Source of the DNA: Pristiophorus japonicus
Lineage: Eukaryota
Direction of reading: 5' to 3'
DNA: 64,000 nucleotides
Assembly (NCBI RefSeq): GCF_044704955.1
Contig: NW_027251843.1
Span: forward strand, 186,001 to 250,000
Made by a program: the position numbers and the translations under genes. Below, one piece after another: positions 4,301-56,428 of the stretch (positions are counted from its first letter, which is position 1; the number at the start of each line of letters is the position of its first letter). A model generated the notes under the pieces. That model saw only the letters and a list, made by a program, of their open reading frames with translations, was not told the DNA's origin and searched no databases.

Positions 4301-4751
4301 ACAAGTCAATAAGTGGCAGCTTGTCAAACGCCTTTCGAAAGTTCTGATACACATCAACCGTGATATTTCTGGATATATCTAGATTCCTTCCAAAGTGTAT
4401 CACCTTGCATTCATTATATTAAAGTTCACATTACTGCACAGTCTGCATGTTTCCTAACGTCTATTGTGAGATGTCGTTCAGTGAAATAGTTCTTCAATAT
4501 TTGAAGCAAAGCATCAGTTTATTGAGTAAAATACCAATAATAATTAATAAATAAAGGCAGCCATCTACAACTGTGTGAGGTTTTGGAACTTTACCAGAAA
4601 GTCAGAGGGTTTATTGCTGAGTAAACTATTGGCTTGTCACTTTGTACTGCTGCTATTCGGTAAAGCTGGTGAAGATATTATTTATTTCAACTAACACAAC
4701 CGCTGCCCACTTTACATGAGCCTCACTTTGTTCTTTCCATATATAAATATG

Positions 4752-6080
4752 CACCCAATACCCTCAGACCCTCCACACCCCACCCAATACCCTCAGACCC
4801 CCCACACCCCACTCAATACCCTCAGACCCTCCACACCCCACCCAATACCCTCAGACCTTCTCCTCCCCACCCAATACCCTCAGACCCTCCACACCCCACT
4901 CAATATCCTCAGACCCTCCACACCCCACTCAATACCCTCAGACCCTCCACACCCCACCCAATACCCTCAGACCCTTCCCTTCCCACCCAATACCCTCACA
5001 CCCTTCCCTTCCCACTCAATACCCTCAGACCCTCCACACCCCACTCAATACCCTCAGACCCTCCACACCCCACTCAATACCCTCAGACCCTCCACACCCC
5101 ACCCAATACCCTCAGATCCTCCACACCCCACCCAATACCCTCAGACCCTCCACACCCCACCCAATACCCTCAGACCCTTCCCTTCCCACCCAATACCCTC
5201 AGACCCTCCACACCCCACCCAATACCCTCAGACCCTCCACACCCCACTCAATACTCTCAGACCCTTCACACCCCACTCAATACCCTCAGACCCTCCACAC
5301 CCCACTCAATACCCTCAGACCCTCCACACCCCACTCAATATCCTCAGACCCTCCACACCCCACTCAATACCCTCAGACCCTCCACACCCCACTCAATACC
5401 CTCAGACCCTCCACACCCCACTCAATACCCTCAGACCCTCCACACCCCACTCAATACCCTCAGACCTTCTCCACCCCACTCAATACCCTCAGACCTTCTC
5501 CACCCACCCAATACCCTCAGACCTTCTCCACCCCACCCAATACCCTCAGACCCTCCACACCCCACCCAATACCCTCAGACCTTCTCCACCCCACCCAATA
5601 CCCTCAGACCCTCCACACCCCACTCAATACCCTCACACCCTTCCCTTCCCACCCAATACCCTCAGACCCTTCCCTTCCCACTCAATACCCTCAGACCATC
5701 CACACCCCACTCAATACCCTCAGACCTTCTCCACCCCACCCAATACCCTCAGACCCTTCCCTTCCCACCCAATAACCTCAGACCTCCTCACCATACCCAA
5801 TATCCTCAGACCCCCCCACCCAATACCCTCAGACCTTCCCCACCAATACCTTCAGACCCCCTCAGTCCACCCAATATCCTCAGACCTCCCCCACCCCACC
5901 CAATACCCTCAGACCCCTCCCACCCACCCAATACCCTCAGATGCTCCCCACCCCACCCAATATCCTCAGACCCCTCCCACCCACCCAAAACCCTCAGACC
6001 CTCCACCCCACCCAATACCCTCAGACCCACCCCCACCCAATACCCTCAGACGCTCCATCCCACAGAATATCCTCAGGCCT
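4752..6080. repeat. 29-bp C-rich minisatellite
   Basis: CCCAATACCCTCAGACCCTCCACACCCCA unit, about 45 copies, degenerating at the 3' end. Confidence 0.95.
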
Positions 6081-19150: not shown

Positions 19151-19994
19151 GATTCGTCTGAGCTTTCGACCACACATCCGCAGCATAACTAAGACTGCCT
19201 CTTTCCATCTCTGTAACATCACCCGTCTCCACCCCTGCCTCAGCTCATACGCTTTTGAAGCCCTCATCCATGCCTATTAACTGTAGACGCGACTATTCCA
19301 ATGCACTCCTGGCTGGCCTTTCACATTCTACCCTGCGTAAACGAGAGGTGATTCAAAACTCGACTGTCCGTATCCTAACTCGCACCGAGTCCCGCTCACC
19401 CATCACTCCTGTGCTCGCTAACCTACATCGGCTCCCAATTAAGCAAAGTATTGGCGGGAGGAAAGGTGATGGGTTTTGGGGATATAAGGAGCTGCTTTGC
19501 AACAAGCTCCAGCTCAGGAGGAAGAAAGCTCCGGAAACAGCTCCGCAAAAAGCTCAGCAAAAAGCCCAGGAAAAAGCCCAGGAAAAAGCCCAGGAGCAAG
19601 ACATTCAGGAAGAAGCTGCAAGCAAGACAACGGGCAATCAGGGTGAGCATATTGCCTGCGCCTACACATCCACAAGACCACTTAGCTGTGTGAGGGGGTG
19701 ATTGTAAGTCCCAACCAAACCCAAGGGGTTTAGTGCTGGGGGGGTCCTGTGTTAGTTTATTTCACGGGAGGGTTCTTTTATTCAGCCGTGGTAACTTAGC
19801 ATGACAGGGCTTATTGGACAAGCCAGGGTTGTACTGTTTTGCACTGTTTATGAGTGGTATTGTTAATCTTATTAAACACAATACAGTTGAGCCTGAAAAA
19901 CGTGTGTCCGAGTCTGACCTGTCCAGAAAATTCCTATCGTCCAGAACTTGTAGTAGGAGGTGTGTTTTCAGTATGCCCGAGAAAACCACCTACA

Positions 19995-20715
19995 GGCACC
20001 CCCTCCAACAGTGCAGCACTCCCTCAGTACTGCCCCTCCGATAGTGCGGCACTCCCTCAATACTACTGCTCCGGCAATGTGGCACCCCCTCAGTACTGAA
20101 CCTGTGACAGTGTGGCACTCCCTCAGTACTGCCCCTCTGACAGTGCGGCACTCCCTCAGTGCTGCACCTCCGACAGTGCGGCACTCCCTTAGTACTACAC
20201 CTGCGACAGTGCAGCTCTCCCACAGTACTGCCCCTCTGATAGTGCAGCACTCCCCCTCTGACAGTGCAGCACTCCCTCAGTACTGCCCCTCTGACAGTGC
20301 GGCACTCCCTCAGTACTGCACCTCCGACAGTGCGGCACTCCCTTAGTACTACACCTACGACAGTGCAGCACTCCCTCAGCACGGCCCCTCTGACAGTGCG
20401 GCACTCCCTCAGTACTGAACCTGTGACAGTGTGGCACTCCCTCAGTACTGCCCCTCTGACAGTGTGGCACTCCCTCAGTACTGCCCCTCTGACAGTGCAG
20501 CACTCCCTCAGTACTGACCCTCCGACAGTGCAGCATATCCTCAATACAGCTCCTCTGACACGGCAGCACTCCCTCAGTAATGCCCCTCCGACAGTCTGGC
20601 ACTCCCTCAGTACTGCCCCTCTGACAGTCTGGCACTCCCTCAGTACTGCGCTCTGACAGTGCAGCACTCCCTCAGTACTGTCCCTCTGACAGTGCGGCAT
20701 TCCCTCAGGACTGCA
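19995..20715. repeat. About 33-bp SINE-derived minisatellite
   Basis: CCCTCTGACAGTGCGGCACTCCCTCAGTACTGC unit; the same motif occurs once in the SINE at about 27180-27220. Confidence 0.92.
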
Positions 20716-22879
20716 CAGTAGTGTATATCTTTAATTTGCACTCAGGTCCCGGGAGTGGGGCTTGAACCCACGATACAACATTGCATCACTGCATGCCGTT
20801 CAGTCTGAGCTGTGAGTCATATCCCGACCTCAGTTGGAACAGCTAACTCAGAACAAACAACAACAGCAACTTTTATACAGCACCTTTAACACAGTAAAAC
20901 TCCCCGAGTGCTTCACAGGAGCGTTATAGAATAAAGATTGACAGCGAGCCACCTAAGGAGACATTGAAATTTGCAGCTCAGTCAAATTGTGAGGGAAATT
21001 GGCAGTGCTGTCTTCATACCAAAAGGGGGCGATGTTGGTTCTGAAAAGACCAAATTTTTGGACAATTTCTGTGTCACTCAATTGATTGGTTTGTAAAACC
21101 CGTTTGTACCAAACCTCCAGTCAGGTTTGCAGAATAATTTCCAGTTCCCCACGTGTCATTTGATGGTGGATCTCAGCGTGTATCTCCTCGTCCGCTCGTG
21201 AGGCGGTGTCTCAGAGCGATTGGAGGGTCAGCAGCCACTCCGCACTGCAGTGAGCATCGGCAGGCCATTCCACTGTGGGAGGCCTCTCCGCGGAGCTCGG
21301 TGCACGGGGTATATCCACACAGAGACGCTCTGCCGCCAGGTACAGCAGCAACAACCTGCATTGCTATAGCAACTGGAACATTAGAACAACATCCCGAAGC
21401 AGCTGATAGAGGCGTAATCTGGTCAAAGTGTTGCTGAGCCAAAGGGGGAGGAGCTGGGAGGGTGATCAAAACACTCAGTCACAGATTGGGTTTGAAGGGA
21501 GGTCTTAAAAGAGGAGAGGGGTGGAGTGGCAGAGAGGTTTAGGGAGCAGGGAGTTAGGGCCCAGGCAGCTGAAGGCACAGCCCCCAATGGAGGGGAAAGG
21601 GAAGGGGGGATGGATAAGAAGCCTGAGCCAGATACAGCGGCCCCTGAACACAACAACAACTTGCATTTATATAGCGAGTGTTGTGACAATGACAGACAGT
21701 GAGAATATAACCCTGATCATGTAACACAGTATTTGCAGCACTTGACACTGTGGGGAAAGCTTGTAATTTTAATCCATGAGCTGTACATAAGCGAGAGCAG
21801 GACCTGTTTGTGGCCGGTGCGGAGATCACCACTTACAGAAGGTAGTTACTGCAGGGAATTCAGGGCCACAGTGACCTCCTGGACTAGTTTCCATCGCCTG
21901 GGGAGCGGGGGTGGGGGCGGGGGGTGGCAGGGTCGGAGAGGAGTTTCCCAGATTTATTTCCCCCAATGGGTTTTTTAGCTGGTTTTCCACCTCTCCCAGG
22001 AGATCAGGTAGTTTTGGGTGGGGTGGAGAGTCTATACTGTGATACACCAGGTATCACAATTGTGTGGGACGGGCTGGATGGACCACAGGGTCTTTACCTG
22101 TCCGTCACTGTTCGCGGGTTTGGGTTTCAAAAATGTAGAGCTGAATTGGAAAGAAAGACTTGCATTTATATAGCGCCTTTCACCACCTCAGGTCATCCCA
22201 AAACGCTTTACAGCCAATGAAGTACTTTTGAAGTGTAGTCACTGCGGTGATGGAGGAAACACGACAGACAGTTTGTGAACAGCAAGCTCCCACATGTGAC
22301 TATGACCAGATAATGGGCCTAAATTGCGTATCGCCCCGAGTGGGGCGGTAACTTTTCCCATGCCCAAGTCCCGCGGAAGCGAAATTGGGGTCACGGCCCC
22401 TGACAGGAAGTGGAGCGCATTGTGGCGCGCTGCACTTCCCCTGGGGATGGGCTCGAGGGCGAGTGTCGGGCTGCACCATCGCGGCACCGACCCCGCCACA
22501 TCGGCACAGAAAGGCCCGACCGGTAAGTTGGCAAAAACAAATGGCAGAGCGCACCTCGCAGTAAGGTTCACCCCACGAGTGAAGTGCTGACCGGTTCGTG
22601 GCCCACAGGCCTGGCGTGGACACAGCTCACAATCTGTTTCCTGGTTCTTGGGTAGGACTTGAACCCACAACTTTCAGACTCAGAGGCGAATGTGCTGCCC
22701 ATTGAGCCACAGCTGACTGAGCTGCAAACTTAAGGCACATTAATGGCCCATCGACGGTGTTCGCCCTCAGTGGGGTGAACAAATCCAGAAATTATGGCCT
22801 GAATGATGTCGGCCGGGCCATTATTTGCTTTTTTATCGTTTTAAGTTTATTTCTGCTGTGTTAGTCCTTAGTCTATTAA

Positions 22880-27315: not shown

Positions 27316-28582
27316 CTAATACTCAAAATCATATTGGATTGTTGTATAAACATCTGCAGTGCAGGGTTGGCACATATTCAGCACTGAAATGGTTAACAGT
27401 AAGAGTCGGTAAAGACTGAGTGTCCCGTTAAGATGCTGTTCACTGGTAGGAAGCTCGAACTGTAGATGGGTGGATACAGGGGAAACAGGCTCAGCAGTGA
27501 GAAAGCTCAGATCACACACAGATCGGTGCAGAAGCTTCTAGATTGCGTTTAAAAGCTTGCTGCCCAGCACCGGGGTGAGGTCAAGGGTGAGGCTACAATT
27601 AGCCTCAGTGTACCGGGGTCAGGCAGGGTCACTGATCCCAATGATCCCGTGACCTTCTGGAAAGTCAGAATGCGCGGACATTAGGCGAGGGTCAGGATCA
27701 GGGTCCCACTTCAATGAATTTATATAGCGCCTTTCACAACCTCAAGACTTCCCAAGGTCCTTTACAACCAATTGCACACAGGAAGATTTAAGAGGTTGTT
27801 GCCTGGACTGGAGAATTTTAGCGATGAGGAAAGATTGGATAGGCTGGGGTTGTTTTCCGTGGAACAGAGGATGCTGAAGGGAGACCTTATTGAGGTGTAT
27901 AAAATTATGAGGGGCTTAGATAGAGTGGATAGGAAGATCTATTTCCCTTAGCAGAGGGGTCAACAACCAGGGCATAGATATAAAGTAATTGGTGGAAGGT
28001 TTAGAGGGGATTTGAGGGGAAATATCTTCAGCCAGAGGGTGGTGGGGGTCTGGAACTCACTGCCTGAAAGGGTGGTAGAGGCAAAAACCCTCACCATATT
28101 TAAAAAGTACTTGGATGTGCACTTAAAGTGCGGTAACCTACAGGGCGACAGACCAAGAGCTGGAAAGTGGGATTAGGCTGGGTAGCTCTTTGTCGGCCGG
28201 CGCAGACACGATGGACCGAATGGAGTCAGCCAGTGGCTCAGTTCGTCGTGCCCTCGCCTCTGAGTCAGAATTTGCGGGTTCAAATCTCACTCCGATGTCC
28301 TGGCCAATATTTATTCCTCAATCAACACAACAAAAACAAGTTATTTGGTCATCATCACATTGCAGTTTGTGGGAGCTTGCTGTGCACAACTTGGCTGCTG
28401 CATTTCCTACATTACAACAGTGAGTACACTTCAAAAAGTACTTCATTGGCTGTAAAGCATTTTGGGATGTCTGGTGGTCATGAAAGGCGCTATATAAATG
28501 CAAGTCTTTCTTCCTTTTCTCAGAGCCGAGCGTGCTAGTGACTGAGCAACGGCTGACAACTCACGGTCGATTAGCCTGACAC

Positions 28583-28990
28583 GCTCAGTCTCTGGGCTCA
28601 CACTGGGACAGTGAGCTCACTTGGGGAGCTCAGTCTCTGGGCTCACACTGGGACAATGAGCCCACTTGGTGAGCTCAGTCTCTGGGCTCACACTGGGACA
28701 ATGAGCCCACTTGGGGAGCTCAGTCTCTGGGCTCACACTGGGACAGTGAGCCCACTTGGGGAGCTCAGTCTCTGGGCTCACACTGGGACAGTGAGCCCAC
28801 TTGGGGAGCTCAGTTTCTGGGCTCACACTGGGACAGTAAGCCCACTTGGGGAGCTCAGTCTCTGGGCTCACACTGGGACAGTGAGCCCACTTGGGGAGCT
28901 CAGTCTCTGGGCTCACACTGGGACAGTGAGCCCACTTGGGGAGCTCAGTCTCTGGGCTCACACTGGGACAGTGAGCACACTTGGGGAGGG
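28583..28990. repeat. 45-bp minisatellite (about 9 copies) in the J-C intron
   Basis: GCTCAGTCTCTGGGCTCACACTGGGACAGTGAGCCCACTTGGGGA unit. Confidence 0.95.
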
Positions 28991-31118
28991 GAACTGTGCC
29001 CCAGCCAGAGGTAGTTCCTTCAGGAGTGAGATGGGGAGCAGATGACGGGCAGCCTGTGGTGTAGAGGGGAGACATTTCACCGGCCGAGGGCAGGTGCTGA
29101 GCCCGTTTACCTGTAAGAATGTGATAAGTGGATGGGGAAAGTGGGCCGGGCACTGAGTTAACGTCCTGTGTTGCTGGTGGAACTCTTGCTGTCTGCTCCG
29201 TCACGTGTGACAAACACGCAGACACATCAGACGGACATCTGGGATGGAGGGATTGTCCTATGGAGAGATTGAGTAGACTAGGCCTATATTCTCCAGTGTT
29301 TAGAAGAATGAGAGGGGATCTCATTGAAACATACCAAATTGTGACAAGGCTTGACAGGGAAGATGCAGGGAGGATGTTTCCTCTGGCTGGGGAGTCTAGA
29401 ACCAGGGGTCACAGTCTCAGAATAAGGGGTCGGCCATTCAGGACTGAGATGAGGAGAAACCTCTTCACTCAGAGGGTGGTGAATCTCTGGAATTCTCTAC
29501 CCCAGAGGGCTGTGGAGGTTCAGTCCTTGAGTATATTCCGGAGATCGATAGATTTTTGGATATTAAAGGAATCGAGGGATATGGGGACAGTGCAGGAAAG
29601 TGGAGTTGAGGTGGAAGATCAGCCATGATCTCATTGAATGGCGGAGCAGGCTCGAGGGGCCAAATGGCCTCCTCCTGCTCCTAATTGCCATATTCTTATG
29701 GAACATTAGTTCGTGTTCTGGGGATTTTCTGGTGGGTCCAGGTTTAATCAGCAGGGGAATTGTGCGAGTCCCAGTTAATAAAAAGGAAAGAGAAATTAAA
29801 GAAAGACCTGCATTTATATAGCACCTTTCACACCTCAGGATGTCCCAAAGTGCTTCACAGCCAATGAAGTACATTTTTGAAGTGCGGTCATTGTTGTAAT
29901 GTGGGAAACACGACAACCAATTTGTGCACAGCAAGCTCCCACACACAACAATGAGGTAAATGAGCATTTCAAGCGATGTAGGTTGCGGGATAAATATCGG
30001 CCTGAACTCGAGCCACAGAAACAGCAACTGAGAGTCTCCCCACAACCCTGGAGCACTGCAGCCGCCGGATTGCGAGCCCTGCTGCCCCTGTTTGTGATCA
30101 GAAGTTGGACAGGAGGTGAGCGGGGGCTGGACAGATCAGAGTTGGAGCTGGGGGAGGCGGGACCTCGGGAGTGTCAGTGTGCTGAGGCTGAGCTCAGTTA
30201 TATCAGAGACTGTGACAGGAGCACAGACTGCCCCCAGCGAGCTCACTCACTCACACCCACACTCTGCCCGTGTCTCACACACCGTGTCTGTCACACTGAG
30301 ACAGGCAGGAGGCTCGGGAGTGATTTCCGGGGATGGTGCAAGGATGGGACCGCAGTGTGTCAACGTCCAGATCTCCTCCACACGGTGGGTAACAGTTCGT
30401 TACTTATACTTTGCTGGGTGAAGGCGGAGTGTGTGTAAAGGAATACAGCCGGGCTCCCTGTCATACACAGCACTCTTCAATTGACGCTTTCATTCACCGC
30501 AGCTCCCCACCATATTATATAACCCATACAGAGGCACAGGAGAGGGTGCAGAGAAGGTTTCCAAGGATGGGACCAGAAATGCGAGGGTGTACATATCAGG
30601 AAAGGATGAACAGGCTGGGGCTCTTTTCTCTTGAGGCCGAGGAGTGACCAGATAGAGGTCTTTAACATTAGGAAAGATTTTGATAGAATGGATACAGAGA
30701 GAGTGTTTCCACTTATGGGGAAGAGCAGAACTAGAGGCCATCAATATAAGATAGTCAGCAAGAAATCCAATCGGGAATTCAGGAGAAAATTCTTTACCCA
30801 GCAATTGGTGAGAATGTGGAACTGGCTACCACAGGGAGTGATTGAAGTGAATAGTATCGATGTATTTAAGGGGAGGCTAGACAGGGATATGAGGGAGAAG
30901 GGAATCGAGGGTTATGCTGATAGATTTAGATGAGGAAAGACGGGAGGATCGAGTGGAGCATAAACACTGGCATGAACTGGTTGGGCCGAATGGTCTGTTT
31001 CTGGGCCATGTATCCGATGTAATCCTGTGTAAACTAAAATCTTCCACTATTCAGCATTTGTGTCTTCGAAAGATTCAGTATTTAAAGTGTTAATAACGGA
31101 GCATTGGGGTTTACTTAC

Positions 31119-41705: not shown

Positions 41706-43105
41706 ACTGAATCAGAGAATGGTTACAACACAGGAGGAGGCCATTCGGCCCATCGAGCCCGTTCCGGCTCTCTGCAAGAGCACTTCAGCAAGTCCCACTC
41801 TCCCACCCTTTCCCCGTAGCCCTGCAAATTGTTTACCTTCAGGTACTTATCCAATTCCCTTTTGAAAGCCACGATTGAGTCTGCCTCCACCACCCTTTCA
41901 GGCAGAGCATTCCAGATCCGAGCCACTCGCTGCGTAAAACGTTTTCCCGCATGTCGCCTTTGGTTCTTCTGCCAATCACCTTAAATCTGTGTCCTCTGGT
42001 TCTCGACCCTTCCGCCAATGGGAACAGTTTCTCTCTATCTACTCTGTCCAGACCCCTCATGATTTTGAACACCTTGGTCAAATCTCCTCTCAATCTTCTC
42101 TGCTCCAAGGAGAACAACCCCAGCTTCTCCAGTCTATCCACGTAACTGAAGTCCCTCATCCCTGGAACCATTCTTGTAAATTCCCTCTGCACCCTCTCTA
42201 AGGCTTTCACATCCTTGGACACAATACTCCATTTGAGGCCAAACCAGTGTTTTATACAGGTTCATCATAATTTCCACACTTTTGTACTCTATGCCTCTAC
42301 TTATGAAGCCCAGGATCCCGTATGCTTTCTTGAAAGCATTTTCTCAAGCTGCCCTACCACCTACAACGATTTGTGCACATATACCCCCAGTTCTCTATGT
42401 TCATGCACCCGCTTTAGGATTGTAATCTTTAGTTTATATTTCCTCTCATCATTCTTTCTGCCAAAATGTATCACTTTGCACTTTTTTGCGTTAAATTTCA
42501 TCTGCCAAGTCTACGCCCATTCCACCAGCCTGTCTATATTTTGAAGCCTATCACTATCCTCCTCACTGATCACTGTACAGGTTGAACCTCCCTTATCCGG
42601 AACTCTCGGGAACGGGCCTGTTCTGGATAAGGGATTTTTCTGGATGAGGGGTGGTCACGTTAAATTGGATGGTACAGGTACTGAGCAAGGGGATATCGGG
42701 GCTGCCTGGCTTGGGGCTGGGAGTGCAGCAGAGAGACCATTGGGGGCAGCGGGGGGCGGTGGATCACGGGGTCAGGCCAGCGATTGCGGGAGTCGGCAGC
42801 GAAGAAGGACTTCAATTTGTTCATGTCGTCGTGGTTGGGAATGGTTCTGGACGAGAGGTGGTTCCGGATAAGGGATTTCTGGATAAGGGAGGTACAACCT
42901 GTACTTCCAAGTTTTGTCTCATCTGCAAATTTTAAAATTGTGCCCTGTGTACTCACATCCAAGTCATTAATATACACCAAGAAAAGAAGTGGTCCCAGTA
43001 CCGACCCCTGGGGAATCACTGTATACCTTCCTCCAGTCCGAAAGACAACTGTTCACCACTACTCTCCGTTTTCTGTCACTTGGCCAATTTTGTATCCTTG
43101 CTGCC
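41706..43105 (-). mobile_element. CR1 LINE 3' part, target of the ERV insertion (continues at 52512-52530 and about 54444-54620)
   Basis: PQGSVLGP, FADETK, LEQRRLRGDL on the minus strand. Confidence 0.88.
42578..42901. mobile_element. Tc1/mariner (Tigger-like) MITE
   Basis: TA TSD on both sides; TIR CAGGTTGAACCTCCCTTATCC / GGATAAGGGAGGTACAACCTG. Confidence 0.85.
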
Positions 43106-43566
43106 TGTGGAAGAAAGAATCTATGAATCCATGGCTTATGGTAAAGGGAAGGGTTAAATTCTGTTTTTGCTATATTTGAAGAAATAATAGGACTAGAACA
43201 ACACCCACACTTTTTAGCCTTAAAACTTAGAAATGTAATTAAATGACTATCCGGTATTAAAAGGGAGTCTCCTGATATTCTGCTTATCAGACTGTGAACA
43301 GGGAGAAACTATGCAAGGACAGATAGAGTGTGTGCCTCCCGAGACGACCTTTGTACTCACGGAACTAATGAATAAGATTCCTTTTCTATTTCTGTATTCT
43401 ATTTCTGTATAAAGATAGGGACATTTTGCTTGTACAGGAGAGTTTTCTGCCTTGGTACGGTCCAAGCAGGCTCTCCGAGATATTTTGCTTTTTTAAATAA
43501 AATTCTCTCGAAGCACGATTCTGAAAGCCTCCGCCTGAGTTAATTAACTGAGAAATTTCCTCGACA
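43106..43566 (+). repeat. ERV 5' LTR (461 bp)
   Basis: TGTGG...CGACA; TATAAA and AATAAA inside; direct repeat of 52051-52511. Confidence 0.96.
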
Positions 43567-43571
43567 GATTC

Positions 43572-43590
43572 TGGCGTAGTCCGGCAGGAT
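43572..43590 (+). promoter_or_regulatory. Primer-binding site, tRNA-Ser
   Basis: TGGCGTAGTCCGGCAGGAT versus the complement of the tRNA-Ser 3' end TGGCGTAGTCGGCAGGAT (one extra C). Confidence 0.8.
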
Positions 43591-43910
43591 CTCTAAAAAA
43601 CGAGATCCAAAAGAACTAAATTTAACTTTTAAAGGGAAAAGAGGAATTTTAAGGACCTTCCTAGCTGAAAGGAGGAAGGTGCCTCGGCCGTCCTAGCTGA
43701 AAGGGGGACGAGCTGCCGAGATCCCCTGGAGGGTGAGGCATAATTTAAGGTAGCTACCGCAAAGAAGCTAAAATAACAAAAAGGCAAAAGGAGACCCCGA
43801 GCTGAGCGGAAAAGAGAACACCGGTGAGCGCTTTGTAAATTATTGTATATTTTGTAGGATTGTCCCAACTCTCATTTCAGAAAAGATCGCGAGACGTTGC
43901 ACCCGGAAGA

Positions 43911-45557
43911 ATGGGAAACGGCTCTAGTCGAGCAGGGCGCTCGCACCCAGCTCCTAGAAAAGGAAAGAAAGACGACCTCTCAACTGAAAGAATGAAAGTA
44001 CATCCTAAGACTGAGAAAAGAATCCGTAAGGTAGCAAAGCAACGAGAGAAGGTAGGAGATCCTATTGTGCCGCCCGGCTCGCCGGCAGACACTGTAATTA
44101 AAGAAACAGGAGACGACAGATACGCGGTAACGTTTAGTAGCGATTTGTACGGTTGGTCTGATGGGGATTGGCCATATGGAGGAAGTTTTAAATTGACCTT
44201 AATTGAGGAATGGAGACAGACCACCAAAGATGGGGCGGGGGTCCCCACTTGGGATAAAGATTATATGGAGAATTGTTTTAAAAAATGGACAGAGGTGGCA
44301 AAAAGGCACCAGCCCCCTAAAAATAAAAAGAAAGAGGAGGAGGGTAAGGAGAAGCCCCCTCCCTCTTACAGCCCCCCCGAGAGCCCCAGTTATGACCGCT
44401 TCCCCTGTCGGCTTATATCCCCGTCTTCCAACCACCAAGCCGGATGATTGGCAGGAGATCATAGAAATAGTGGCTGCCCAGCTAGATCAGGCCTCTAGGC
44501 GACGAATGCAACCACGACCCCAGAACCCACCAGAGGATGAAAACGGGGAAGGAGGGGCAAGTGGAGGAGCCGAAGGCGAAAACCCCAACCCTGACCCTGG
44601 AATGAATACCAGGAATACCATAAGACAGGCCGATTCCACCACTACCCCCACGACACAAGCCCCCCGTGTAATGATTGGAACCACGGCTGTCCTAAAGCCC
44701 TGGAAGCTCGGGATATGATATCAGCCACCCCTAATCCTGTTAAGAAGCCAGTAGCCTTTCATAACTGGCTTGAGCAAACCTGTACCATTTATAACCCCCT
44801 CCCCGGAGATGTGAAATTATTACTGCAGGCAGCATATGGGTCCTCTTGGCAGGGGGTAAAAGATATGTTCCCTATACCCACCGGCGAAAACGGAGATTGG
44901 CGGGAAGATAATGAGGAAGAAGGAAATGAGTCCCGGGAACATTGGTTGCAGCACAGGGGCAAGGATGCCATACTAAAGGGAGCTAAAAAGCATGGAGATA
45001 TAGGGGAAGTCACGCGCTGTCTGCAGAAAGCAGAAGAATCAATAATAGATTTTGCAGGCAGATGGAAAAATAGTTGAGACGAGCATGCAGCAATACCAAT
45101 GGATCAAAATGAACCTTTGGCAGTGCAAACCTTGTTAAATTGTATGTTGCCGCAACACACGAGAACCTATAAAATTAAGGTTTTGGACTGGCAAGGAAAA
45201 AGTTGGAAGGAAACAATTACAGTCTTGGCCAACATGGATAGGGAGGGACTATTCACCTATAAGGAAAATAAGGCTAAAACAGCAGGTCAGTACCATCAGC
45301 AAAAGGGAAGAGAACAAGCACAGAATAATAGAGGAGGGTTTGGGGGACGAGGACGAGGAAGAGGGAGAGGACAGTGGCCCCAACGAGACCGCTCCCAAGA
45401 TGAGTGTAGAAATTGTGGAAGGAAAGGGCATTGGGCTCGCGATTGCAGATGCCCCCCGAAACAGGGTGGAGGGTTACAAGGGGATTTCCCCAAACCTCCA
45501 CCTTCATTGGCCCCTCAGTTTTCGTTCTCTAACCCCAACCCGCACCAATCAGCATAG
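43911..45557 (+). pseudogene. gag: ERV gag (two frameshifts, one stop)
   Basis: MGNGSS myristoylation start, WPYGGSF matrix motif, PPSY and YPRL late-domain motifs, CRNCGRKGHWARDC zinc knuckle, TAG in frame with pol. Confidence 0.9.
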
Positions 45558-48500
45558 GGATGCCCCGGAGGCTTAGTGGTACAGGCGGCAGCCCTCCACT
45601 TATCAGCAGACATCGAAGAAAACCCTTTGGCAGTAGTAAAAGTAGGAGACACTTATGTGAAATTCCTGGTGGATACCGGTGCTACTATGTCTTCTGTACC
45701 ATCCTCTGTGGGATTACCTGTAAGCAACACCACCGTCTTAAGTATGGGTGTGGCCGGTAGCCCCATGAAAGAATTTTTATCTGAACCTACCAAATTGATA
45801 ATTGAAGGACAACCAGTTAATGATGAGACTTTGATAGTCTCTAAAACAACACCTCTCCCTTTATTGGGAAGACAGACTTTGTGCAAACTAGGAGCCACAA
45901 TTTATTGCACAAAGGAAGGAATGTACATGGAGCTCCCTCCAAATAAAATTCATCAGTTGTTTAATGGGATTAAAGAAGAGAAAAGGGAGGATAACAAAGA
46001 AAAGGCTGCCTTCTATTGTTGGCAATTGAATGGCAACTTCTACTCTCCTTTGATACATGAAGTTATACAAAATTTAAAAGCTAAAATCGACCCTAATACT
46101 GAAGAATTGATGTATATAATTTTGACAAGCATTCAGGCAGTTCAGCTTCATTGTACAGCCTGGTACACTCGACAAAAAGCTGAAACTTACCAGTGTTTGG
46201 TACAATCCTTTTTAAAAAAAGAAGAAATAGTAGAAGCTACGCCCCACATTTATTTTGGACCAGAAGGATTGGGGGTAGCCATGGATTTGACACCCTTACA
46301 GCAGCAGCGGTATAGAGAAGCGAACTCGACACCCCATCTGACATTGGCTACAAAACCGCCAGCGAAAACAAAAGATATGGGTCCGATGATTGTAGGAATA
46401 GAAAAAGAAAAACAGCAACAAGGCTATCAACCTTGGGCAGTAATAAAACTGCAAAATGTTCAGATAGACTTTATCACCCACAACAGGGGGATTCTCCAGT
46501 GGAAAGGTAAAAATCACGCCTCCACTTTTGAAAAACAGCAACCCCCGGAACAACCAAGCCCTAAGCTGCCAATGGCATTGAATCAAGTATCTTCTGAACT
46601 TTGGGCAAAGCATAAGAATCATGTTGGGCAAGTACATTCTGCAGTACCCCATCGGGTACAATTGATAAAGAACACCGTGTTACCAAGCATTAGACAGTAC
46701 AGACTGCCTCCAGAGGCAGAAAATGGGATAGAGCCAGTCATTTCTGCATTGTTGGAACAAGGAGTTTTAAAAAAGACACAGAGCCCGTGTAACACTCCGA
46801 TACTGCCCATACCAAAGGTTAATAGGCCGAATGAATGGAGATTTGTGCAAGATCTGAGAGCTATTAATAAGATAGTAGTCCCTATCACCCCTGTGGTACC
46901 GGACACCAACATTATACTATCTGCTATACCACCAACAGCAACTGTCTTTACTGTGATAGACCTGTGTTCAGCTTTTTTCTCCATCCCTTAAATCAAGAAA
47001 GTCAGTATCTGTTTGCTTTCACCCACAAAAGCAGCAGTACACATGGACCAGATTGCCCCAAGGATACACCGAAAGCCCCGCAGTATATGCAGCAGCAGTA
47101 AAAAGAGACCTTGATGACTGTTCATTATCAGACCAGTCTGTGCTGTTGCAGTATGCGGACGATTTGCTTGTGGCTTCTAGCCACGGATACAGGTGCGTAC
47201 AAGACTCCCTAAAACTGTTACAGCACCTATGTGAAAGAGGGCACCGAGTGTCGTTACCAAAGTTACAATTTTGTCAGACTCAAGTCCAGTACCTGGGTTT
47301 TCACATATCTCAAGGGCAGAGGCAGCTAGGACCAGAAAGAATTCAGACAATTCAAAGTGCCCCCATACCAAAGACAAAGAAGGATATCTTGTCATTTTTG
47401 GGGATGGTTGGGTACTGTAGACAATGGATCCCCGATTATCGAGAATGGGATGCGGTCCTAAGATCAGCTGCCCTAAATGATGCCCCACCCAAGGTGGAGT
47501 GGACCCCAGAGAGAGAGGAGGCATTTAAACAGTTAAAGAAAGCCATTACTAATGCTCTGGCGTTGGGACTTCCGAATTATGGTAAACCTTTTCAGATGTA
47601 TGTGAATGAGAAAGAAGGATTTGCAACCGCAGTACTAACCCACGAACATGGTGGGGGAAATAGACCAGTTGCTTATTATTCGGTTTTGCTGCCTCCAGTA
47701 GTAAGGGGAATGCCAGCATGTCTACGTGCTGTAGCTGCTACTGCAGTCATGGTGGAGAAGTCGGTACCTATTGTTTTGGATTATCTATGTGCTGTCATTA
47801 CAGCCCATGCTGTGTTATTACTTTTGAATTCAGCTGCCACACAACACTTTACAGCGTCTAGAAGAACAGGTTATGAAGTATTACTGCTGTCACACCCTAA
47901 CTATACCTTTCGACGCGCACCGGTAGTAAACCCAGCCACCTTTCTTCCTACTAAAGAATAGAGGATCCAGACCAGCATGATTGTCTGTTAACAGTGGAAA
48001 TAGCCACCTTACCAAGACCAGATTTGCTCACAGAGCCCATGGACAATCCTGATCTTATTCTCTATACGGATGGATCATCACATAGGCCGTCGGATGACTT
48101 GCTGTTGGCAGGCTATGCTATTGTAAATCCCCACGAAACTGTTGAAGCATTCGCCCTGCCTCCCGGAACCTCGGCTCAGGCTGCTGAATTGTTTGCCCTC
48201 ACTAGAGCTTGTATAATAGCTAAAGATCATACTGCTAATATCTATACTGATTCCAGATATGCATTTGGTGTGGTCCATGATTTTGGACAACTGTGGAAAA
48301 ACAGAAGCTTTATCACCTCTGGTGGAAAGCATATTAAGCACTCTCAACTGGTGCTTAATCTATTAGATGCCATTCAGTTGCCAAGTAAGGTAGCCGTCAT
48401 CAAATGTGCAGCTCACACAACCGGTGAGGATGAAGTATCAGTAGGAAATAGGAGGGCTGACGAGGCAGCCAAACAGGCCACTTCGGCACAGGCAGACTGC

Positions 48501-49712
48501 CTTCAAGCAGTCTCAGTCTCCCCTCCACAAGTACTTGACATCCAACAACTTAAAACAGCCCAACAACAAGTTACCATGCAGGAAGGAAGAACTTGGGAAA
48601 ACCAGGGTTGTTTTCTCAAAAACGACATCTGGTGTCACCCTGATGGGCGAACTGTTTGCCCTAAATCTCTATTTTTGCCCCTGTCTCGCCTAGCACACGG
48701 TCAGGCTCAAATGGGCAAAGGAGGGATGATACATGCTATTAATGCACAGTGGTATGCACCAGGAATAACAGTAGTAATTGAGAAAGTTGTGAGAACATGC
48801 CAAATTTGTCAAAAAAATAACAGAGGTAAAACACCTGCTGAATATGATCATCTACCCCAGCCAAGTATGCCCTTTGAAAATTTGCAAATTGATTTTATTC
48901 ACACGCCTCCAGTATCAGGTCTTAAGTACCTATTAGTCATAATAGACATGTTCACAAGGTGGGTAGAAGCGTACGCCACGAGGAGAGACGATGTCCGAAT
49001 AGTAGTAAAAATTCTATTTAAAGAAATAGTACCAAGATATGGGATACCTATGGGAATCAACAGTGACAGGGGAACACACTTCACCGGAAAAATAGTGCAA
49101 AACCTTGCAGAAGCGTTAGGTTTCCAGTGGAAGTTACATATACCATATCAGCCACAGTCCTCGGGAATGGTAGAAAGAGTAAATGGGATAATAAAATCTA
49201 CCCTTACCAAGGTATGCCAGGAGACTGGACTAAAGTGGCCAGATGCCTTACCATTGGTATTGTATACAATGAGAAACCAGAAAAACCGAAACACTGGTTT
49301 GACACCACATGAAGCCTTATTGGGAAGACCAATGCCTACTGGCGTAAAACCACCACTGGCAGCTGAAAAAATAGCATTAATTTGGAATGATGAAAAATCA
49401 CTAAAGTATGCTCAGGCCATGTGTGAAATAGCAAGGAGTCTGCATGAACAGATAAAGCAGACACAGGTGCCCCCGTCGGAAGGAAATATGCACCCTTTCA
49501 GGCCTGGAGACCAACTGCTGGTAAAAACATTAAACAAAGAATCCTTTTCTCCTCGGTGGAAAGGACCATATCAGATAATTCTCACAACACGAACCGCGCT
49601 GAAGTTGGAAAAGCATCCAAATTGGGTGCATGCAACCCATTGTAAATTATTTTCCCGACGAAATACAGCCAAAAGAAAAGGCATCGAACCAGGACGTACT
49701 ACGATTGCCTGA
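45558..49712 (+). pseudogene. pol: ERV pol: protease - 2H phosphoesterase - RT - RNase H - integrase (frameshifted near 46990-47040 and 47960)
   Basis: LVDTGA protease; VQDLRAIN, LPQG, YADD RT; TDGSS/AAEL/YTDSRY RNase H; IDF..SDRG..MVER integrase; WKGPY. Confidence 0.95.
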
Positions 49713-49810
49713 CTAAGAAAAAGGCCATCTTCTCGCTGAAGAACTGTACCTGCTCTTGCATTAAATTAAATATTTGGACTTGAAAGTACTGCCCAAAAGT
49801 TCAGGAACGG

Positions 49811-49966
49811 ATGTCAGAGCTCATTTGTGTGCCAGTTTGGGCCTTTATTATTTGGGCCACTGTTACTATCGTGTGGACGTGTTGTTATTGTAACGACTTA
49901 ATTCAAGAGTGGTATAGAAACAAACAAGAAAGGGAAGATGGGAAGGGACTCTTGGAAAAATTATAA
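49811..49966 (+). CDS. Putative retroviral accessory ORF, 51-aa single-pass membrane protein overlapping the env start
   Basis: MSELICVPVWAFIIWATVTIVWTCCYCNDLIQEWYRNKQEREDGKGLLEKL*, translated by hand; below the ORF-track cutoff. Confidence 0.55.
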   Translation: MSELICVPVWAFIIWATVTIVWTCCYCNDLIQEWYRNKQEREDGKGLLEKL

Positions 49967-52124
49967 ATGGACGTTAGGTATACTGATCATTTTAGCGACA
50001 GGGAACTCCCGGCAGGAGGAAGAAGTTCTAAAAGAAGGAAGAGTATGGAAGGGAAATATGGTATGGGAAAGAAGTAATAGTGCAAGGCAACAAGGCAATT
50101 TTATATGCACAGTAGGCCAAAGTTGTAAAGTAGGGAACTTTACGACACGATGTGAGGCGTGTGGAATGAAAGAAGAAAGAGGGGAATTCCAGTTTATATT
50201 GGGGAAAGGGTATCAGTTGTTCATAGAATACCAGGCCGATGTGTGGATGAAGTGTACCCACAGCACGGGGAAAAACAAGAGATGGGGGTACATAGGAGGG
50301 CCGGACGAGAGAAAAGACTTCCTCCTTTATTCATTTACAAGTATGGTAGAAGGGCAGCGGATGTTGTGCATGAATAACACCCCGGTGAATGGAGGAGACC
50401 CATTCGTGGTAAAATGGTCAGTAAAAGAATCTGGCCACCCAGAAGACCGGGACCCGGGACATCTAAAAAGGATACTGACCACTTGCATCCCAGTGGTAAG
50501 ATCCCCAGGTGTATTAAATCTAACAATACGAATTAAATATCCCCCAAAGAAAGAAGATGGTTGCCACACAACCAGTGTTAAGGTATCTTTTGAAAAAGAA
50601 AGACCCCAAAGAAAGAAACGGGATGTATTAGAGACTGTGTTAGGTGGAGTGGGAGCAGGAATAGGAGCATTGAACTCCATGGATATTGAGACCCTACAAA
50701 ATAAAATCCAGGCCGTCGGAGGACTGGTAGGGGAAGATATAAAAATCAGAAATGCCTGGGATGAAGGATTACAGCAATTACAGATATCAGGTTACGTCCT
50801 AAATGAAATGACCTGGCAACAGAATGAAAGGGTAGAGAAGGAAATAGAGAACCTAATAAAGGAACAACAGGGAGTAACAAGTACACCCATTGCCTGTTTA
50901 AAGAAATGATCAGACAGCTATTAAGAGCCGAGTTAGAAAGGAAAATATTATCCTTCCATGCTAACACATGGGAAAGGTTGCTGGAAATTAACAAAAGGGA
51001 TAAGCTTCTTAATTTAACCATTAACCCTCAAAAAAAAGATATACCAGTTGTAATTCAAAAGGATGTAAAGTTACTGTGGAGATAGTAAGTAAGACACGAA
51101 AATAAATTTGGTGTCAGTTCCAAGTAATGCCCCAACTGTTTGGACAGAACTTCTGGTACCCAGAATTTAAAGGAGATTGGGTCGATGAGAAGAATATGAC
51201 ACATCACCAGATGCTAGGTGGCCATTCGGAATGGTATGTCCCTATCAGACCGCCATATACGAACCATGCTCACTGCAGCACTCCATTGGAGTATGTAAAT
51301 GGGAATTAAAGCCAACAAATGACACTGATATTACGGAAATAGGACAGAATGAGGTCTGTGTGACAGGAAATAAACCTGTCTCTCTGGATGGAATTTTGTA
51401 TAAACCCCCCATTAATAAATGCGTGAGAAGAGTCTACTCCCTGTATGACCCTGAAGTAAAAACAACTTATACCTTTGGGCAATGGCAAAATGTAGAAAAA
51501 TATCTGTCTATGCACAAGATTGAACCCTTACCCCCCGTAATTAATCTGACCAGACTGCACAATTTGATACGGAATGACAAGAAAATTGAGGAAGCTCTGT
51601 CAAAGCAAGGCAGAAACATCCACCAATTTAGAGTCGAAATGAGTTACAAGAAGGGGCAACTAGTAAGAATTGTAGACGAAGTCACCTCTTTGACAGTACA
51701 CCACTGGTGGGATGTGTTTACCGGATGGTCCCCAAAAGCTACAGCAGTACTGAAGCTTGCTATACACCCCATAGTAATCGTAGGTGTGGTTATGCTTGTA
51801 TTATTAATAATCCTTTGCGGAATGTGGATAAAATAAAAAAATGTAATTAGTCAAGTAATAGGCCTGATCTCCGAAATAGAAAGGAAAAGTGTGTGCATGA
51901 AAGGAAGGTTAAGTTGCTTAGAGGAAAAGGTTGATGAAGACGAATATCTCAAAATGCGACCCTATCCTGAAGGGTATGAACCCCCTTTTGCGCAAGAAGA
52001 GAATATAGGAAATTGTGTTGATCTGAAAAAAAAATCAACAAGAAGGGAATTGTGGAAGAAAGAATCTATGAATCCATGGCTTATGGTAAAGGGAAGGGTT
52101 GAATTCTGTTTTTGCTATATTTGA
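49938..52124 (+). pseudogene. env: ERV env (disrupted around 50900-51230, stop at 51834-51836, in-frame tail to 52124)
   Basis: Signal peptide, RKKR furin site followed by a Gly-rich fusion peptide (DVLETVLGGVGAGIGALN), heptad region, membrane anchor IVIVGVVMLVLLIILCGMW. Confidence 0.88.
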
Positions 52125-52511
52125 AGAAATAATAGGACTAGAACAACACCCACACTTTTTAGCCTTAAAACTTAGAAATGTAATTAAATGACTATCCGGT
52201 ATTAACAGGGAGTCTCCTGATACTCTGCTTATCAGACTGTGAACAGGGAGAAACTATGCAAGGACAGATAGAGTGTGTGCCTCCCGAGACGACCTTTGTA
52301 CTCACGGAACTAATGAATAAGATTCCTTTTCTATTTCTGTATTCTATTTCTGTATAAAGATAGGGACAATTTGCTTGTACAGGAGAGTTTTCTGCCTTGG
52401 TATGGTCCAAGCAGGCTCTCCGAGATATTTCGCTTTTTAAAATAAAATTCTCTCGAAGCACGATTCTGAAAGCCTCCGCCTGAGTTAATTAACTTAGAAA
52501 TTTCCTCGACA
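52051..52511 (+). repeat. ERV 3' LTR (461 bp)
   Basis: About 8 substitutions versus the 5' LTR by manual comparison; preceded by AAGAAGGGAAT. Confidence 0.96.
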
Positions 52512-52967
52512 CTGCCACTGTCCCGTTTATTTTTTTTATTTGTTCCTGCGATGTGGGCATCACCGGAAAGGCCAGCATTTATTGCCCATCCCTAATTGCC
52601 CTTGAGAAGAACCGCTGTTCCTTTTTTTAATAGCAGTTTGGTACAACTGAGTGGGGTAAGATTTTGTACAAGTTTGCTGTAACTTGACCAGATTTTATGT
52701 ACCAGCATGCCTCGCGAGGCCAACAGGACTTTCTGCTGCACAAATGTCCATTAAAGCTGCTGAACGCTGCAAGCTGTCCTGTGGTTGAGCTACTTCGAAA
52801 GCTGTGTTTCACAGGTAAGGGAAATAGTGGCCTTCAGACCGTGAGAACTTTGCGAGAACAGACTCAGAAACAGGAACATCAGCACACAAGAAGTCTCCAG
52901 TTTTGCATTCGACTGATTAACTGTCTAGCTGGTTGATCAGGAGAGGAGAAGAACATCTACGGCCATT

Positions 52968-54028
52968 CCTCCCATCGAATGAGACATGGACACACTGAGG
53001 GACTGCCCATTACTCCCATCGAATGGGACACGGACACACTGAGGGACTGCCCATTACTCCCATCGAATGGGACATGGACACACTGAGGGACTGCCCATTA
53101 CTCCCATCGAATGGGACACGGACACACTGAGGGACTGCCCATTACTCCCATCGAATGGGACACGGACACACTGAGGGACTGCCCATTACTCCCATCGAAT
53201 GGGACACGGACACACTGAGGGACTGCCCATTACTCCCATCAAATGGAACATGGACACACTGAGGGACTGCCCATTACTCCCATTGAGTGGGACAAGAACA
53301 CACTGAGGGACTGCACATTACTCCCATCGAATGGGACATGGACACACTGAGGGACTGCCCATTACTCCCAGCGAATGGGACACGGACACACTGAGGGACT
53401 GCCCATTACGCCCATCGAATAGGACACGGACACACTGAGGGACTGCCCATTACTCCCAGCGAATGGGACACGGACACACTGAGGGACTGCCCATTACTCC
53501 CAGCGAATGGGACATGGACACACTGAGGGACTGCCCATTACTCCCATTGAATGGGACATGGACACACTAAGGGACTGCCCATTACTCCCATTGAATGAGA
53601 CACAGCCACACTGAGGGACTGCCCATTACTCCCATTGAATGGGACATGGACACACTAAGGGACTGCCCATTACTCCCATTGAATGAGACACAGCCACACT
53701 GAGGGACTGCCCATTACTCCCATTGAATGGGACATGGACACACTAAGGGACTGCCCATTACTCCCATTGAATGAGACACAGCCACACTGAGGAACTGCCC
53801 ATTACTCCCATCGAATGGGACATGGACACACTGAGGGACTGCCCATTACTGCCATCGAATGGGACACGGACACACTGAGAGACTGCCCATTACTCCCATC
53901 GAATGGGACATGGACACACTGAGGGACTGCCCATTACTCCCATCGAATGGGACACGGACACACTGAGTGACTGCCCATTACTCCCATCGAATGCGACACA
54001 GACACACTGAGGGACTGCCCATTACTCC
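52968..54028. repeat. 44-bp minisatellite (about 24 copies)
   Basis: CTCCCATCGAATGGGACACGGACACACTGAGGGACTGCCCATTA unit with no variable spacers. Confidence 0.95.
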
Positions 54029-56428
54029 TAGTTTTGTAGTGTAAAAAGAGCTTCAAAATTAGTATTAGAGGCTTGTTTATAACCCGGGATTACTGAGTGT
54101 AACAGTACTATTAGAGACTTACTTGTAACCTCTTGGTGATTTTAAGTAAAGAGAACTTATTCCAGAAATTTTTGTCTTGAGCTGTCTGTTCCACAGGTCC
54201 GAACTCTATAAACTGTTGGACGGTGTGAGGGGTAAATCCACACATCTTACAGTGACTCACTGGGCCATTAAGTGTTAACCACATGATCACCATTATTAAC
54301 ACAAGCTTTTTTATTCCAGATTTATTTAATTGAACATATATTTCCCAGCTGCTGTGATGGGATTTGAACTCATGTCTGTAGGATTATTGTTTTACTTTTC
54401 TGAATTATTAGCCCAGTAACATTACCACTATGCTTCCATTCCCCATTCCATGGGCTTCAACTTTGCTGGCAGGCCTATTATATGGCACTTTATCAAACGC
54501 CTTTTGGAATACGTCAACTGCATTGTCCTCATCAACCCTCTCTGTTACCTCATCAAAAAACTCAATCAATTTAGTTGAACACAATTTGCCTTTAATAAAT
54601 CCGTGTTGGCTTTCCTTCATTAATCCTCCTCAGATAATGAAGCAATCTGTGCCCGCATGCAGCAAGACCTGGAAGACATTCAGGCTTGGGTTAATAAGTG
54701 GCAAGTAACATTCATGCCACACAAGTGTCAGGCAATGACCATTCTCCCAACAAGAGAGAATCTAACCACTGCCCCTTGACATTCAACGGCATTACCATCA
54801 CCAAACCTCCCACCATCAACATCCTGGGGGTCACCATTGACCAGAAACTTAACTGGACCAGCCACATAAATACTGTGGCTACAAGAGCAGGTCAGAGGCT
54901 GGGTATTCTGTGGCGAGTGTCTCACCTCCTGACTCCCCAAAGCCTTTCCACCATCTACAAGGCACAAGTCAGGAGTTTGATGGAACCTCTCCACTTGCCT
55001 GGATGAGGGCAGCTCCAACAATTCTCAAGAAGCTCGACACCATCCAGGACAAAGGAGCCCGCTTGATCCACCACCTTCAACACTCACTCCCTCCACCACC
55101 GGCGCACCGTGGCTGCAGTGTGTACTATGTACAAGATGCACTGCAGTAACTCACCAAGGCTTCTTCGGCAGCACCTCCCAAACCCACGACCTCTACCACT
55201 TAGAAGGACAAGGGCAGCAGGTGCATGGGAACACCATCACCTGTAAGTTCTCCTCCAAGTCACACACCATCCTGACTTGGAAAAATATAGTCCGTTCCTT
55301 CATCATCACAGGGGCAAAACCCTGGAACTCCCTCTATAACAGCACTGTGGGAATAAGAGAACACGGGGTTGGTGCTAATATATTAGCATGGATAGAGGAT
55401 TGGCTAACTAACAGAAAACGGGGAGTCAGCAAACGGTAACTAGTGGGGTTTCACAGGGATCGGTGTTGGGGCCTCAACTATTTACAATTTATGGTAATAA
55501 CTTGGATGAAGGGACCGAGTGTAAAAAATCAAAGAGCAAATTATTATTTAAATGAAGAGAGATTACAAAATGCTGTAGTACAGCAGGACCTGGGGTTCCT
55601 TGCGCATGAAACACAAAAAGTTAGTATGCAGGTACAGCAAATACTCAGGAAGGCAAATGGAATGTTGGCCTTAATTGCAAGGGGGATAGAGTATAAAAGC
55701 AGGGAAGTTCTGCTACATCTGTACAAGGTATTGGTGAGACCACACCGAGAGAACTGTGTACAGTTTTGGTCTCCTTATTATAAGGAGAGATTTATTTGCA
55801 CTGGAGGCAGTTCAGATAAGGTTCACGAGGTTGATTCCTGCCTGAGATGAAGGGGCTGACTTATGAATAAAGGTTGAGCAGGTTAATCAGAACATAAGAA
55901 ATAGGAACAGGAGTAGGCCATACGGCCCCTCCACCATTCAATAAGGTCATGGCTGATCTGATCATGGACTCAGCTCCACTTCCACGCCCACTCCACGTAT
56001 ACTCTTTGGAGTTTAGAAGAATGAGAGATGAACTTGTTGAAACATATAAGATTCTGAGGGGGCTCGACAAGGCAGATGCAGAGAGGATGTTTCCAGTCAT
56101 AGGAGAATGAAGAACTAGGGGGCAGAGTTAAGGAATAAGGGGTCGCCCATTTAGAATTGAGATGAGGAGGAATTTCTTCTCTCAGAGGGTTGTAAATCTG
56201 TGGAATTCTCTGCCCAAGAGAGCTGTGGAGACTGGGTCATTGAATGTATTTAAGGTGGAGATAGACAGATTTTTGAACGATAAGGCAGTAAAGGGTTATG
56301 GGCAGCGGGTAGGGAAATGGAGCTGAGCCCAGGATCAGATCAGCCATGATCTTATTGAATGGCGGAGCAGGCTCGAGGGGCCAAATGGCCTAGTCCTGCT
56401 CCTATTTCTTTTGTTCTTATGATTCTTT

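Follow-up and report, generated by a model that had tools for sequence, protein, structure and literature searches.

Acidic clusters and Tyr-x-x-hydrophobic motifs in the cytoplasmic tails of retroviral Env proteins direct trafficking and virion incorporation, and the tails of MLV, MPMV, RD114, and HIV/SIV carry YxxPhi and acidic-cluster sorting signals of this kind, as set out in the cited portions of PMC9967133 and PMC3917443. The motif YxxM can be read by two different partners, being bound by AP-1/AP-2 when unphosphorylated and by p85 when phosphorylated (PMC4255484, in the excerpt cited). In the JSRV Env tail, YxxM matters for transformation; direct binding of p85 is, in the cited part of PMC3185594, something that was never shown. 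Across JSRV/ENTV, the motif marks one strain set and is absent from close relatives, and in JSRV it separates exogenous from endogenous strains. From the cartilaginous fishes, the elephant shark CmiERVs have been described, with an LTR divergence similar to that of the provirus analyzed below; the cited portion of that account (PMC4422223) holds no description of an Env tail. Our literature search, which covered few subscription journals, returned no account of the Env tail of a shark retrovirus or of a YxxM in such a tail.

The Env tail analyzed here lies in a stretch of 64,000 nucleotides from the sawshark Pristiophorus japonicus (hereafter the window; all coordinates are window positions, and all features are on its + strand). 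Like the tails of MLV, MPMV, RD114, and HIV/SIV, it combines tyrosine motifs with an acidic patch and a predicted membrane-proximal helix, and, as in JSRV/ENTV, its YxxM distinguishes one group of strains from close relatives that lack it. However, the core motif of the shark tail, GYxPPF, is not a canonical YxxPhi, and most of the shark subfamilies have no canonical motif at all, unlike the retroviruses named above. The window's subfamily also has two YxxM motifs where JSRV/ENTV have one, these are carried by endogenous copies as a derived state, and both the Env class and the host are unrelated. The analogy with JSRV drawn in an earlier, sequence-only reading of this DNA is real but weaker than implied there: a YxxM is present in an Env tail, but the motif sits in endogenous copies, it is not shared across the group, and p85 binding is undemonstrated in JSRV itself as far as the cited source goes. 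On balance, and with modest confidence, we favor the interpretation that this is the Env tail of a multi-copy endogenous retrovirus, cut by a stop that probably arose at a mutational hot spot after insertion, and that YLKM, confined to one subfamily, is likely to have been a tyrosine-based signal for sorting or adaptor binding and not a PI3K dock inherited from the ancestor.

The tail belongs to a full-length provirus (43106-52511) in which gag, pro-pol, and env are all broken. Its 5' LTR (43106-43566; 461 nt) and 3' LTR (52051-52511) are bounded by copies of a 5-nt target site, CTGCC, at 43101-43105 and 52512-52516. Downstream of the 5' LTR is a primer-binding-site-like stretch (43572-43590), which we take to resemble the 3' end of tRNA-Ser. 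The gag-pro-pol region (43839-49712) is interrupted by stops and frameshifts and retains protease, RT, RNase H, integrase, and zinc knuckle domains. The RT matches a gammaretroviral-type RT at E 2e-70 and a foamy Pol at E 1e-21, and its top matches are presumably the enzymes of the MLV group; a gammaretroviral-like RT of this kind fits epsilon-like lineages. The two LTRs differ at 8 of 461 nt, and this 1.7% divergence would correspond, very roughly, to tens of millions of years at the neutral rate assumed in the cited portion of PMC4422223. The insertion was assembled three times with the same flank (L001-L003), one copy being near-identical and one 1% diverged. The two further copies of 43101-52516 (L002 and L003) lie on another contig, 258 kb apart.

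The env ectodomain and membrane anchor (49902-51836) are distributed over three pieces (49902-50909, 50828-51085, and 51189-51836), the last of which ends in a TAA stop (51834-51836) at the edge of a homopolymer run, a stop that recurs among copies. In a structure model, the predicted membrane-spanning helix covers 51732-51830 (residues 174-206 of P0001) and ends just before the TAA. The sequence-only reading had placed the TAA directly after the anchor and had noted that the frame stays open past it into the 3' LTR. Both points are borne out: the open frame runs for 95 codons (51837-52124), enters the LTR at 52051, and includes the tyrosines of DEDEYLKM (51945) and YEPP (51975). Its description of the tail as severed by a single stop is correct as to the stop but understates the damage, because env is frameshifted upstream too: the window copy is out of frame with 32-33 of the 35 youngest-clade copies (itself among the 35) at about 50870, 51020, and 51210, so that translation already ends at 50907-50909. 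The duplicate L003 has the first two of these frame breaks together with the stop, as in the window. When the anchor and tail are modeled together with X at the stop (pTM 0.36), the membrane helix is followed by a second helix (51840-51929), conserved in all subfamilies, and then by coil, with YLKM in a low-confidence stretch. Neither the env pieces nor the tail matched a Pfam family at a meaningful score, and the Env piece had no sequence match among solved structures. A structural search with the Env model gave one viral match at 2e-04; Foldseek with the model (pTM 0.36) returned no PDB match at E<=0.001, and its weak rows included pneumovirus F.

The comparison of copies shows that the segment beyond the stop is a true cytoplasmic tail, belonging to the Env of an endogenous retrovirus with many copies in the shark genome; it is in frame with the anchor in most copies and under constraint at the protein level. 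In a count of exact-pattern sites across the 5.9-Gb genome, which is independent of our choice of loci, the codon at 51834-51836 is sense at 172 of 196 sites and a stop at 24, and the stop is not fixed. Reading passes from anchor to tail in 99 of 110 loci (the first 30 fetched and 80 that we picked from 144 matches), and in 23 of the 30 first-fetched loci (40 scored of 672 candidates). Between subfamilies, dN/dS of the tail ranges from 0.12 to 0.83 in nine pairs (all below 1 and eight below 0.6), as compared with 0.14-0.37 for the ectodomain; these values rest on at most 8 open copies per group and include post-insertion changes. The same tail is also found in frame with the anchor in an outgroup protein, P0003, at 55% identity. 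A word-index protein search returned nothing among longer proteins, and for P0003 only the query itself.

Relatives of this Env at E<=0.001 number 74 and are spread across jawed vertebrates, including sharks, bichir, amphibians, a turtle, birds, and the koala, the nearest named ones being from a sawshark and a horn shark. Among them is P0023, an 873-aa protein from the chicken, which aligns with the Env ectodomain and anchor at E 2e-09 and 23% identity and is probably Ovex1 ORF3. The length given for Ovex1 ORF3 in the cited part of PMC2717909 is likewise 873 aa. The homology of the shark Env with this type of Env extends over the ectodomain and anchor, whereas the tails differ: most relatives have about 15-45 residues, and the shark family has a core tail of 55-65 residues, reaching about 90 in one subfamily. 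YxxM occurs in 2 of the 56 relatives with a locatable anchor. A distant Env of the same class, P0042, has an independent tyrosine-rich tail of its own, about 67 residues long, which includes DDDNYVSM and ends in TYENL.

Across the subfamilies and the outgroup, the deeply conserved element of the tail is MRPxPxGYxPPF and not YxxM. This core (MRPYPEGYEPPF; 51954-51989) is kept in all subfamilies and in P0003, and its 12 codons show 10 synonymous versus 3 nonsynonymous variants among 10 representatives. In contrast, the Tyr of the acidic patch with YLKM (51933-51956; Tyr codon 51945) is specific to the window's subfamily. Within that subfamily it is conserved (Tyr in 65 of 65 and Met in 64 of 65 aligned insertions, with YLKM or YLQM in frame in 61 of 67), but every other subfamily sampled, like P0003, has a Cys in its place, contrary to the ancestral YxxM that had been proposed. 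We set the invariance of YLKM within the subfamily aside as uninformative, because most columns are invariant at 97-98% identity. Across 162 loci, some of them duplicated, 79 combine the Cys with an upstream Tyr a few residues before the Cys column, 75 have the Tyr and lack the upstream one, 5 show other states, and in 3 the site was not found. In a protein tree that excludes the tail, all five representatives with Tyr group together in a single clade (97/94), next to 21 rows with Cys, P0003 among them; the root of this tree is unsure because the outgroup branches are long. This distribution marks YxxM as a late gain confined to the window's subfamily, not an ancestral feature.

The ancestral tail would have carried a helix next to the membrane, an acidic patch holding a single Tyr, and MRPxPxGYxPPF. 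The DNA of the representatives suggests that the window's subfamily lost this old Tyr through a three-codon deletion and gained another by a Cys-to-Tyr change, located three residues upstream of a Met that was already present. The family series thereby records stepwise gain and loss of tyrosine motifs in an Env tail, including an extension into U3. In a sub-lineage seen in L159, L163, and short-read contigs, about 120 nt of the tail are deleted, so that both YLKM and its acidic patch are gone and the reading frame is shifted; this sub-lineage is well represented in three of four short-read runs. At three other loci (L078, L080, and L083), env as a whole is about 93% identical to that of the window at the DNA level, but the protein identity in the anchor and tail is only about 67%, and the env of these loci is probably recombinant.

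The distal end of the tail varies more widely. At an A-run (52026-52034), the frame changes in the window copy, as in many of its sisters, and the frame that the window takes past the run is found in 3 of 67 independent insertions, a set deliberately enriched for stop copies (21 of 67). By this comparison, the last ~30 codons of the window's open frame are a copy-specific wrong frame. In 22 of the 67, the tail reaches in frame a second acidic YxxM that the sequence-only reading did not list, EERIYESM, whose YESM (52067-52078) lies in U3 and is out of frame with the tail in the window copy. Both YxxM motifs are thus in frame as they lie in 22 insertions and changed or unreached in others, the second motif being replaced by YEHL/YEHV in 6 of 67, otherwise altered in 5, and unreached in 8 in which the tail ends just before the LTR. 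The tails of other subfamilies mostly stop before the LTR, and YESM is not encoded in any frame of U3 in those inspected. Judged from this pattern, both YLKM and IYESM are gains of the window's subfamily alone, the latter via extension of the tail into U3, where lineage-specific changes would have given rise to the second YxxM.

The shape of YLKM and YESM makes a role in sorting likely. Both, like YEHL, consist of a Tyr with a bulky hydrophobic residue at +3 and fall in coil in the model, at low confidence. By analogy with other retroviral tails, such motifs would be predicted to bind clathrin adaptors in their unphosphorylated state and thereby to control the surface level of Env and its incorporation into virions. 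The 6 of 67 insertions with YEHL/YEHV keep YxxPhi and lose YxxM, and since a change from YESM to YEHL retains the adaptor-type shape and abandons the p85-type one, we place the sorting or adaptor interpretation first. Other subfamilies replicated without a canonical YxxPhi, so that motif-based sorting would not be essential to the family.

An alternative that we consider unlikely, though deserving of real weight, is that YLKM and IYESM, about 40 residues apart, would together, once phosphorylated, dock both SH2 domains of p85 and drive survival or proliferation of the infected cell. The fit is at least as neat as that of sorting: both motifs are new in the same lineage, both are preceded by acidic residues, and both lie in the predicted unstructured part of the tail. 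The U3 of other subfamilies inspected has no YESM in any frame, the subfamily is large (196 pattern sites), and the distant same-class Env P0042 has its own DDDNYVSM tail. Tyr and Met are also kept while their neighbors change (YLKM to YLQM and DEY to DDY), but the family is so young that invariant columns are in the majority in any case. Moreover, the Met belongs to the older conserved core, so that one substitution made the first motif, and the second motif is YEHL/V, altered, or unreached in 6, 5, and 8 of the 67 insertions. Even in the model case of JSRV, p85 binding and Tyr phosphorylation are undemonstrated in the cited part of PMC3185594. In an extended form, which strikes us as rather unlikely, the lineage would have built a tandem YxxM signaling tail de novo, through the Cys-to-Tyr change and recruitment of the LTR start, arriving by convergence, with an Env of unrelated class, at the PI3K-docking layout of the oncogenic sheep retroviruses, with the GYxPPF core as a second, older adaptor site. 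If the tandem YxxM truly were a PI3K dock, it would represent an independent origin of Env-based signaling in a virus of cartilaginous fishes.

It is also distinctly unlikely, in our estimate, that YxxM is a by-product, selection having kept one acidic-patch Tyr as a kinase site or structural residue that by chance lies three residues before a Met, and YESM being incidental read-through into U3. Consistent with this, 154 of 162 loci have either the one Tyr or the other in strict exchange, and tail length past the core varies freely among lineages. A plain YxxM is no rarity, coming up in 9% of cases when the 62-residue tail is shuffled and in 16% for the 95-residue frame; however, YxxM with two acidic residues just before it appears in only ~2% of shuffles, yet the lineage has two, and the YEHL lineage retains the hydrophobic residue at +3.

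As for the stop, we regard it as ordinary decay in an already broken copy, likely acquired after insertion at a homopolymer-edge hot spot. The sequence-only reading had it inactivate a signaling tail, a claim that is not supported, given the damage to env upstream and the behavior of the stop across copies. Once duplicates are collapsed, the window's subfamily has the stop in 9 of its 53 independent insertions, versus 0 of 50 others. On the copy tree, which is weak because 754 of 1275 column pairs are four-gamete incompatible, it needs 8 changes, at least 5 of them forced by strong branches. A comparison restricted to labeled groups, in which the stop amounts to 1 change, was disregarded, the count on all rows being 9. 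Its carriers are unclustered on the tree (215 of 500 label shuffles are as low) and have no common local haplotype. Of 108 codons in the scanned region that are one step from a stop, ten others have turned nonsense, each in a single carrier, and the recurrence at this codon has a binomial P of ~5e-14 after correction. LTR divergence is 0.017 in stop copies (n=6) versus 0.019 in sense copies (n=18; p=0.48). In a tandem array, the stop is the sole difference (1 of 921 columns) between L152 and both L153 and L155, and a second same-flank set of four copies likewise includes both states. The unclustered recurrence, the lack of a common haplotype, the equal age, and the duplicates differing only at the stop together point to a site-specific change after insertion. 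Some stop copies in the sample, which was deliberately enriched for stops, are mutual nearest neighbors, so that a few may have inherited it.

A comparable site exists in the LTR: at a homopolymer junction (52439), the 5' and 3' LTRs of one provirus differ in 6 of 26 pairs, and the per-copy rate of change there is similar to that at the stop. A general rule that run edges convert was not borne out: 12 of 17 env and LTR sites before a run of at least 5 show no conversion, and in a separate comparison 4 of 6 LTR edge sites show none. CpG decay was also discarded as a cause of the stop, the site not being a CpG. At the junction at 52438-52439, mismatches between the 5' and 3' LTRs are about as frequent as at the CpG sites that vary most, and homopolymer-junction sites of this type could inflate LTR-based ages. 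The tandem array that contains L152 (L151-L155; G000:C3:232758310-232905626) consists of near-identical, internally shortened proviral units at a step of 5355 nt, some of which have common LTRs. The stop has little significance in itself, being decay in a copy that was already dead, but it serves as a warning that nonsense recurrence at a homopolymer edge can mimic selection.

Part of the recurrence could be base-calling error, but it is improbable that such errors, or consensus errors at the homopolymer edge, account for much of it and possibly for the window's own stop. An error would be consistent with tandem copies that are near-identical and differ at nothing but the stop. Among the short-read contigs, those of run X1 include the window's letter at low depth and those of X3 and X7 lack it, and across four runs no window-identical contig spans the site. 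These contigs drop minor variants and cannot give allele shares, so that the absence of the stop from them shows nothing, whereas its presence in X1 argues against error. All three assembled copies of the window insertion (L001-L003) also carry it, including the one that is 1% diverged.

Far less credible is selection of the stop in the replicating virus, as a truncation leaving a membrane-anchored, tail-less Env. Tail truncations recur in other retroviruses. In JSRV, MLV, and HIV, a truncated tail can enhance fusion or the incorporation of Env, according to the cited portion of PMC3917443. In the shark family, the same codon, immediately past the anchor, is hit at 24 of 196 sites, and some stop copies cluster, but no copy carries a stop at the adjacent one-step codons at the start of the tail. 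The carriers also have no common haplotype, both states were seen twice among duplicates of single insertions, and the stop is found in 0 of 51 loci of other subfamilies.

The nef gene overlaps U3, and the sequence-only reading had offered a separate accessory ORF in the nef position as its alternative. This is exceedingly improbable: the segment does extend into U3 in the manner of nef, with ATGs in its frame at 51897 and 51954, but anchor and segment form one uninterrupted reading frame in 99 of 110 loci and in P0003, and ATG 51897 is absent from most other subfamilies, whose tails end before the LTR, so that read-through in most copies and the lack of a separate conserved start refute it.

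Beyond env, the provirus has an insert of ~190 residues between protease and RT (45948-46547) with two H-x-T motifs. A Pfam search with this insert gave no match, and its language-model look-alikes are 2H phosphoesterase clusters, with scores of 0.93-0.95 and recognition below threshold. Domains of the 2H phosphoesterase type occur in the Pol of fish retroviruses. Elsewhere in the 64-kb window, LINE-like 3' fragments are numerous, and minisatellites are present at 52831-54142 (44-nt period), 4636-5900 (29), 28493-29032 (45), and 19933-20735 (33).
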